A stretch of DNA of 7,216 nucleotides from a virus (IMGVR_UViG_2667527953_000015); one strand, 5' to 3'; positions 4,697 through 5,045 are shown, counted from the first letter of the stretch. Numbers and translations are program-made. The notes: generated by a model not told the origin, from the letters alone.

Positions 4697-4737
4697 GTTT
4701 TACATGCCTTGACTTATCGGATGAAATTCTCTTACTG

Positions 4738-4766
4738 AATTTAACGGCAGTTTAATAGCCGTACAA
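4738..4766 (-). promoter_or_regulatory. Candidate sigma70 promoter for the esterase gene (minus strand: -35 TTGTAC, 17-nt spacer, -10 TAAATT)
   Basis: Read on the reverse complement: TTGTAC (plus 4766-4761) and TAAATT (plus 4743-4738). This would give a 5' UTR of about 35 nt. Sequence-only prediction in AT-rich DNA. Confidence 0.2.
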
Positions 4767-4884
4767 CTCGTGGTAGCCAGGGAAATATCCCAGTCGTGGT
4801 TAAGGTTGTACTTGACGGCTATTATTTCAACAATGCTTAAAGTGAGAGCTTAAGGTTATGCGTATGTTTTACAGTCCGAGTAGA

Positions 4885-4911
4885 TTCTGACCAATAGCTC
4901 CTTTGTATAAT
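4885..4911 (+). promoter_or_regulatory. Candidate promoter for the ylcH-ybcN operon (perfect -10 TATAAT 4906-4911, weak -35 TTCTGA 4885-4890)
   Basis: Consensus TATAAT hexamer at 4906-4911 in the intergenic region, about 135 nt upstream of ylcH. The -35 match is poor (3/6) and the spacer is short (15 nt), so this is tentative. Confidence 0.2.
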
Positions 4912-4994
4912 TCTGTCAGAAATAAATCTTGGCTTGCATGAAGTTTGAGACCTTATCTTGTTTGATTATGAATAATCAATTCGCCATAATTGTA

Positions 4995-5021
4995 TCACCG
5001 GAGCCTGAACAACTCCGGTGA
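4995..5021. repeat. Perfect 9-bp inverted repeat (TCACCGGAG ... CTCCGGTGA) with a 9-nt spacer, upstream of ylcH
   Basis: TCACCGGAG at 4995-5003 and its exact reverse complement CTCCGGTGA at 5013-5021. There is no adjacent T-run on either strand, so this looks like a protein-binding palindrome or leader RNA hairpin rather than an intrinsic terminator. Confidence 0.6.
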
Positions 5022-5045
5022 CTTCTGCGCTAAACGGGGACGTTT

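Follow-up and report, generated by a model that had tools for sequence, protein, structure and literature searches.

The 349-bp spacer that separates an esterase gene from ylcH in a viral DNA of 7,216 nucleotides (IMGVR_UViG_2667527953_000015; this whole stretch is here called the window) is probably the right-hand junction of a two-module, moron-type cargo, inserted in a hypervariable slot between P or ren and the nin leader of a phage-82/DLP12-type prophage. In this reading the spacer is composite, one part having come with the esterase gene and the other belonging to the phage, and the cargo would be exchanged between phages by recombination in the conserved sequences on either side. Accessory genes held in such slots of lambdoid phages are known as morons, a concept that goes back to Hendrix and Juhala. 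As a whole the finding is ordinary lambdoid mosaicism, i.e. moron-type cargo in a known variable region.

Layout of the window

The features of the window are collected in Table 1. Since the esterase start codon ends at 4696 on the minus strand and the ATG of ylcH lies at 5046, the spacer comprises positions 4697–5045. With a GC content of 39.8%, compared to 43.5% for the cargo and 48.6% for the nin-Q module, it is modestly AT-rich. Length and composition are thus in line with the original prediction, which had described an AT-rich gap of about 350 bp between the esterase gene and the ylcH-ybcN-ninE-ybcO-rusA-ylcG-Q block, and which had also correctly found the window free of integrase, repressor and replication genes, as judged here from ORFs and Pfam searches.

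Table 1. Features of the window with coordinates, strand and the evidence used for their assignment.
Feature	Position	Strand	Evidence and remarks
3' part of the 250-bp P-adhesin spacer	1–65	+	L003 alignment; P itself lies outside the window
Inverse-autotransporter (invasin/intimin-like) adhesin, first cargo module	66–3616	+	Pfam
Bidirectional terminator-like hairpin in the gap between adhesin and esterase, which are convergent	3628–3648	both	terminator scan
Alpha/beta-hydrolase esterase, second cargo module	3653–4696	-	Pfam BD-FAE (6e-45) and Abhydrolase_3
Cargo-side part of the spacer, esterase 5' flank	4697–4960	-	co-inherited with the esterase in 45/45 viral contigs; GC 38.6%
Conserved nin leader, phage-side part of the spacer	4961–5045	+	start of homology for DLP12, phage 82, HK639, KO-TP1 and CobraSix
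TTGATT-N6-AATCAA palindrome	4962–4979		AATCAA is the reverse complement of TTGATT
CATAAT, putative -10 box	4985–4990	+	promoter scan; phage 82 annotation; 17 bp from TTGATT; 90–100% conserved
Leader hairpin 1, 9-bp stem UCACCGGAG/CUCCGGUGA, loop CCUGAACAA	4995–5021	+	fold and compensatory changes
Leader hairpin 2, GGGA loop (Shine-Dalgarno region), ylcH AUG in the 3' arm	5026–5052	+	
ylcH (orf33), 33-codon leader ORF overlapping the ybcN start	5046–5147	+	RefSeq and phage 82 annotation
nin-Q module	5144–7017	+	Pfam, RefSeq, DLP12 identity
ybcN	5144–5599	+	
ninE	5599–5769	+	
ybcO	5762–6052	+	
rusA	6049–6411	+	
ylcG	6408–6548	+	
Q (quuD-type)	6634–7017	+	

Within the nin-Q module, Pfam recognises YbcO, RusA and Phage_antitermQ, whereas ybcN and ninE match NinB and NinE, respectively, weakly and below the cutoff; the names ylcH, ybcN, ninE and ylcG were taken from near-identical RefSeq genomes. 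Gene order and 95.6% identity to phage 82 over 4961–5600 assign the module to the phage-82/DLP12 type. In phage 82 (X92588, Mahdi et al. 1996) the order orf33-orf151-orf56-orf96-rus-orf45-Q is that of the window, and the promoter hexamers, the inverted repeat and the ribosome-binding site are the same. Phage 82 differs in having an 82-type Q instead of the quuD-type of the window, and upstream of position 49 of its record it matches the ybcM side of K-12, not the esterase flank of the window.

At the right end of the window, a GC-rich hairpin at 7050–7069 (GGGGCG-TGGAAA-CGCCCC), followed by a T-run on the minus strand, looks like the terminator of a minus-strand porin gene that lies downstream in relatives. 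The window closes at 7121–7216 with 96 bp from the end of an IS1 element, which agree at 100% with the IS1A/IS1B ends found on thousands of plasmids. The insertion point of this IS1 is about 100 bp past the end of Q, at a place where relatives run on into an ompC/nmpC-like porin gene; neither IS1 at this site nor a match past 7120 was found in any complete E. coli genome of our collection, and an exact 50-mer spanning the IS1 joint had no match in the species-representative genomes.

Position of the spacer within the prophage

To place the window in its genomic context we searched 5426 complete E. coli genomes, in 146 of which 80% or more of the window is matched. The closest of them is MCJCHV-1 (L003; 99.35% over 1–7120), in which the element sits at icd. 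Hereby, the order is int (frameshifted), xis, IS30/IS3/ISEc21, O (frameshifted), P, adhesin, esterase, ylcH to quuD, porin, essD, J and sitABCD. In this locus P extends to 19816, base 1 of the window falls on 20001 and the adhesin gene begins at 20066, which places the start of the window 185 bp past the P stop codon. The window itself thus stops short of P, whose presence upstream is suggested by relatives 99.4% identical in sequence.

The most complete-looking of the adhesin-bearing prophages is that of NZ_CP148326 (L001), a lambdoid prophage at tRNA-Thr which is 99.8% identical across the junction. Its early region reads int, exo-bet-gam-kil, cI, cro, ydaT, O, P, adhesin, esterase, and continues with ylcH-ybcN to Q, followed by lysis, terminase, head and tail genes; int and the tape-measure gene are annotated as frameshifted. 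A probe for the P-adhesin joint is intact in 558 of the 5426 genomes, and P is found upstream of the adhesin in every adhesin-bearing IMG/VR contig that reaches that far. The original prediction had taken 4697–5045 for the left boundary of a prophage remnant, with cargo in place of the replication and immunity genes. Neither part holds, as P lies 250 bp upstream of the adhesin in all informative relatives and NZ_CP148326 carries cI-cro-O-P ahead of adhesin, esterase and nin genes.

Phage ends and signs of decay do exist in these relatives, at other positions. The integrase genes lie at tRNA-Thr or icd, about 6–14 kb upstream of the adhesin gene. In the MCJCHV-1 lineage, IS elements have taken the place of the immunity region. 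The boundary of this decay comes no closer to the window than the frameshifted O, which puts it at least about 1.8 kb ahead of base 1, not at 4697–5045. The same degraded icd prophage of this lineage carries sitABCD iron/manganese transporter genes past its tail-fibre remnants (L003 35476–38925).

Breakpoints on the two sides of the cargo

Homology to K-12 DLP12 begins at 4961 and continues at 95.6% identity over 4961–7118. The match to the phage 82 nin record likewise begins at record position 49, equivalent to 4961 of the window, its first base being 1 bp before the -35 box annotated by the depositors. As had been anticipated, DLP12-like homology thus starts near ylcH, namely 85 bp upstream of it. 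This start lies inside the spacer, at neither of its ends, which makes the spacer composite: according to the alignments, 4697–4960 shares the ancestry of the esterase and 4961–5045 that of the phage. The cargo-side part is presumed to hold the promoter and 5' UTR of the esterase gene.

To evaluate how general this edge is, we gathered 165 leaders, using as anchor a motif that follows the putative promoter, and clustered them according to the 100 nt preceding each leader. This yielded 29 distinct upstream sequence clusters. The information content is 0.05–0.5 bits up to position -2, rises to 0.87 at -1 (T, 4961) and is 1.78 from +1 (4962) onwards, and conservation sets in at 4961/4962 in nearly all of the 29 upstream contexts.

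The left breakpoints, on the other hand, are ragged. In the adhesin type, divergence sets in 11 nt ahead of the P stop codon, in other types within or after ren. The same point shows up with the P-adhesin probe: where this is not intact, every sampled match ends at probe position 206, again 11 nt short of the P stop. The short direct repeats or att-like sequence that might have been expected at the breakpoint are absent from the joint and from the cargo edges. A repeat search over the whole cargo returned only chance-level direct or inverted matches at its edges, and its surroundings showed neither an att site nor a target duplication nor a repeat flanking it.

Contents of the slot

Between P or ren and ylcH, annotated E. 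coli genomes and phages carry seven different gene sets. Together with the 29 upstream clusters this bears out the view of the junction as a point of cargo exchange, with varying payloads next to one and the same nin-Q module. The original prediction was also right that emrE, ybcK, ybcL and ybcM occupy the equivalent position in K-12 DLP12, the full set being ren::IS3, emrE, ylcJ, ybcK, ybcL and ybcM. O157 F6667 has ren, emrE, a hypothetical gene and ybcK. In O157 NE1092-2 a P22AR-domain gene and a HEPN gene stand between two hypothetical genes, the first of which is on the minus strand. In O104:H4 the slot holds ren, emrE', a zinc-ribbon remnant, P22AR' and a hypothetical gene, in ij001 it holds ren', GNAT, Arc, Arc, an antirepressor and two hypothetical genes, and in phage 4A7 ren, emrE, ylcJ and ybcK are followed by the esterase of the window. 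HK639, Klebsiella phage KO-TP1 and Enterobacter phage CobraSix have cargo of their own, including a Pol III theta homologue. None of the relatives examined has an empty slot; every one of them carries some cargo between P or ren and the leader.

The cargo of the window occupies the same position as that of DLP12, between P/ren and ylcH-ybcN. It differs in its payload, an invasin/intimin-like adhesin plus an esterase, in the absence of ren and in its left break 11 nt inside P. Phage 4A7 (NC_049946, Bievrevirus), and with it Lambda_4C10, 1W, 3W and Perceval, has the esterase, the 4697–4960 flank and the leader joint all as in the window, is 95.1% identical over 4850–5600 and shares the downstream quuD-type Q and porin gene. 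These phages differ from the window in having ren-emrE-ylcJ-ybcK where the window has the adhesin, in their other ybcN allele, and in being deposited phage genomes, in none of which the adhesin finds a match.

Two features identify the cargo as moron-type. It lies between phage genes, with P upstream and nin genes downstream in all relatives, and its base composition differs from that of the surrounding phage genes. Like other cargo of this type it has a GC content below that of the phage backbone, a terminator-like hairpin and one gene antisense to early phage transcription. The esterase-ylcH joint is present in 680 and the adhesin-esterase joint in 438 of the 5426 complete E. coli genomes.

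The cargo genes

The adhesin belongs to the inverse autotransporters, as shown by an IAT_beta domain (4e-101) and five Big_1 domains; its beta-barrel matches the solved structures of invasin (4e1t, 9e-74) and intimin (4e1s, 7e-63). Six E. coli inverse autotransporters of 465–2934 aa have been described by Goh et al. 2019, who do not mention phage (PMC6714894). We considered that the adhesin might be one of these named proteins, none of which has its size (PMC6714894). Just past the adhesin start codon there is an A-tract at 89–95, which counts seven A in the window, eight in 19 related loci and six in L040. With seven A the frame is shifted and a stop codon follows at 123–125, so that the adhesin gene is out of frame in the window. 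This could reflect a sequencing error, a pseudogene or slipped-strand switching. The repeat number of the adhesin varies: L001 has an extra unit of about 357 bp, roughly one Big_1 domain, giving 1302 aa compared to 1183 aa in L003. The tandem copies in L001 lie at 16418–16772 and 16775–17129, and their counterpart in the window at 1374–1728.

The esterase has a signal- or lipoprotein-like N-terminus, and its nearest solved relatives are of the lipase and acetyl-xylan-esterase types. On the minus strand no promoter for it was found at a scan threshold of 9/12. The gene is inherited together with a 5' flank of 240–264 bp. Matches to the esterase alone start at 3649, which sets a sub-module boundary at 3648/3649. 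By these alignments the cargo is composed of two separable modules, the esterase module having its edges at 3649 and at about 4938–4960. In an Escherichia sp. locus (L010) the esterase module, corresponding to 3649–4938 of the window, adjoins emrE without nin genes alongside. This locus was considered as a non-phage origin of the esterase and rejected, because its flanks (bio genes and a ybhC-like gene) are those of the lambda attachment region; it therefore represents a decayed prophage and not an independent origin. Only emrE, the esterase and a few small genes are left there (5760–7440), so in this instance the cargo has outlived the rest of the prophage. Erwinia tracheiphila, Pectobacterium sp. 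and Enterobacter soli (L011, L012 and L013, match at about 6001–7017) have esterase homologues of 61–71% amino acid identity without an adjoining nin leader, which may point to a chromosomal origin of the gene.

The nin leader

The conserved sequence starting at 4961 has the appearance of a regulatory leader that is partly portable. TTGATT, annotated as putative -35 box in phage 82, and CATAAT are separated by 17 bp, as in a sigma-70 promoter; the hexamers are about 86–100% conserved and their spacing is invariant across three host genera. TTGATT is also the left arm of the palindrome, of which the window has one perfect copy (0.07 expected by chance) and whose arms are about 93–100% conserved around a variable centre. 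Over 4961–5052 the blocks follow in the order TTGATT, variable 6 nt, AATCAA, variable 5 nt, CATAAT, another variable 5 nt, hairpin 1 and hairpin 2, and these elements and their spacing are unchanged in phages of Escherichia, Klebsiella and Enterobacter. For K-12, published work on rusA indicates that the operon is adequately expressed only with insertions that supply a promoter (PMC4118853). The putative leader promoter would thus be weak, repressed or attenuated.

The region of hairpin 1 is annotated in phage 82 as a 'possible regulator-binding site'. In CobraSix a C-G pair of its stem is swapped for U-A, and there are several G.U-tolerant variants; these changes point to an RNA structure on the plus strand. 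As the variants of hairpin 2 are out of register in the MAFFT alignment, each leader was folded separately. Hereby, three variants of the hairpin 2 stem were found, UAAACG/CGUUUA, AUUUAAG/CUUAAAU and UUUGAG/CUCAAA, all of which pair perfectly. A 160-nt leader (4991–5150) folds better than 200 of 200 shuffled sequences (z = -3.85). Inside ylcH, the 26-nt sequence CACAGATGCAGAAATGCACCTGCGAT at 5086–5111 does not vary at any base, not even at wobble positions, between E. coli, Klebsiella and Enterobacter phages whose overall identity is only about 75%, which suggests a function at the nucleotide level beyond coding.

Searches in Rfam gave no match for the whole window at E values up to 1. Literature text searches revealed no link between the Pas or svsR prophage sRNA families and the leader position and nothing useful on ylcH. 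We also compared the leader to the put antiterminator RNAs of HK022 and HK639, which form two stem-loops just downstream of an early promoter. The likeness is confined to the general architecture, a promoter followed by two hairpins over about 60 nt. The put stems are longer and bulged, unlike the leader hairpins (PMC9378689), similarity scores to putL-like and M3-like RNAs of HK639 stay within the shuffle range, and HK639 has both its put sites and this leader, which is unannotated there. With Rfam empty too, a put-type antiterminator was rejected.

Somewhat speculatively, 4961–5147 could be an undescribed, self-contained regulatory leader of lambdoid phages from at least three enterobacterial genera. 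It may consist of a promoter overlapped by a palindromic operator for some conserved factor, two covarying hairpins that gate ylcH translation and the invariant 26-nt element, and may serve as entry gate or insulator of the nin-Q module, presenting a single-base docking edge for any cargo. Such a gate, if it exists, would explain why the slot tolerates genes in either orientation, terminators included.

Exchange of the cargo

With regard to how the joints first formed, we infer the following course of events. Cargoes would initially have been joined to the leader by illegitimate recombination, and only those joints that left the leader intact would have persisted, which would render the right edge sharp and the left edge ragged. 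Subsequently, cargoes would be shuffled among phages by homologous recombination in the conserved flanks, the left-hand anchor being the 3' end of P or ren and the right-hand anchor the leader or nin genes. Illegitimate recombination combined with selection predicts a limit at the leader edge, while a precision of one base in nearly all 29 contexts is not obviously predicted and is left unexplained by it.

Homologous exchange has left traces in the window, which is a mosaic: it is L003-like from 1 to about 2507, L001/L026-like at about 2695–6080 and again L003-like from 6081. The differences from L003 number 8 in 1–5054, 36 in 5055–5476 and 1 in 5477–7120, which means that the same cargo is linked to two ybcN alleles. 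The divergence of these alleles starts inside the conserved leader, just past hairpin 2, and marks a past crossover there.

This crossover inside the leader is also what one would expect if turnover were caused mainly by stacking, i.e. if cassettes composed of leader, ylcH and genes stood in tandem and were lost or swapped by homologous recombination between leader copies. The repeated module head would then be the leader-ylcH unit of about 100–190 bp. Indeed, five contigs (L038, L075, L107, L110 and L167) have two leader copies in the same orientation, 1.9–2.5 kb apart and 84–98% identical over 98–629 bp, the first copy heading a Bro-N/P22AR antirepressor-like cassette and the second ybcN. 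One of them, L038 (4600–6760, minus strand), has the esterase and the exact joint of the window, then leader 1, a longer ylcH-like ORF, an antirepressor-like gene, a gene for a 169-aa hypothetical protein, leader 2, ylcH and ybcN, and in HK639 and KO-TP1 the leader-ylcH unit heads a true ninB. Among the 147 leaders with enough downstream sequence, however, ybcN follows in 137, the antirepressor-like cassette in 7 and true ninB in 3, so that only 10 precede anything but ybcN, and the window has a single leader copy. Moreover, stacking explains loss or exchange downstream of the leader, not the unrelated sequences that abut its upstream edge. As the main cause of turnover we therefore regard it as unlikely.

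A boundary precise to one base across 29 contexts would be accounted for if the TTGATT-N6-AATCAA palindrome were the site of a recombinase, for instance of the serine recombinase YbcK; the variable 6-bp centre resembles recombinase core sites, and ybcK, a member of a recombinase family, is present in the slot of K-12, 4A7 and O157 F6667. Yet the break coincides with the outer edge of the palindrome, not with its centre, and the window has no second copy of it even at one mismatch. In L003, allowing two mismatches, there are 6 matches in 47 kb compared to 4.6 expected, none of them near the left end of the cargo or the adhesin/esterase boundary. Neither paired sites nor a target duplication flank the cargo, direct repeats are missing, the left edges are ragged and the cargo of the window contains no recombinase gene. 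Taken together, the lack of edge repeats, the lone palindrome and the position of the break leave site-specific insertion without support, and we consider it very improbable.

Least tenable is the reading of 4697–5045 as left end of a DLP12-like remnant in which non-phage adhesin and esterase genes replaced the replication/immunity region: the lack of integrase, repressor and replication genes in the window, its IS1 end and frameshifted adhesin gene, and the degraded MCJCHV-1 prophage (int and O frameshifted, IS30/IS3/ISEc21 in place of the immunity region) agree with it, but P precedes the adhesin in the 558 genomes and in all long-enough viral contigs, deposited phage genomes carry the esterase internally between ybcK and ybcN, and replication and immunity genes in normal order upstream, which the original prediction itself had named as incompatible with such an end, are found in the relative NZ_CP148326 (cI-cro-O-P-adhesin-esterase-nin), so that it is already refuted.

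Implications

The main value of the analysis lies in this correction, from a prophage edge to an internal slot. Since the junction belongs to an internal cargo slot, the adhesin and the esterase are to be read as phage-borne candidates for lysogenic conversion. The two genes are common, their carriers include bloodstream and urinary isolates, e.g. MCJCHV-1, and a phage-borne invasin-like adhesin would bear on colonisation and on the spread of such traits. For lambdoid prophages in general, a right edge of the slot that is set to one base by a conserved, structured leader provides a landmark for cataloguing their cargo. The leader itself is a small testable element, putatively regulatory, ahead of the genes leading up to Q, the activator of the late genes.
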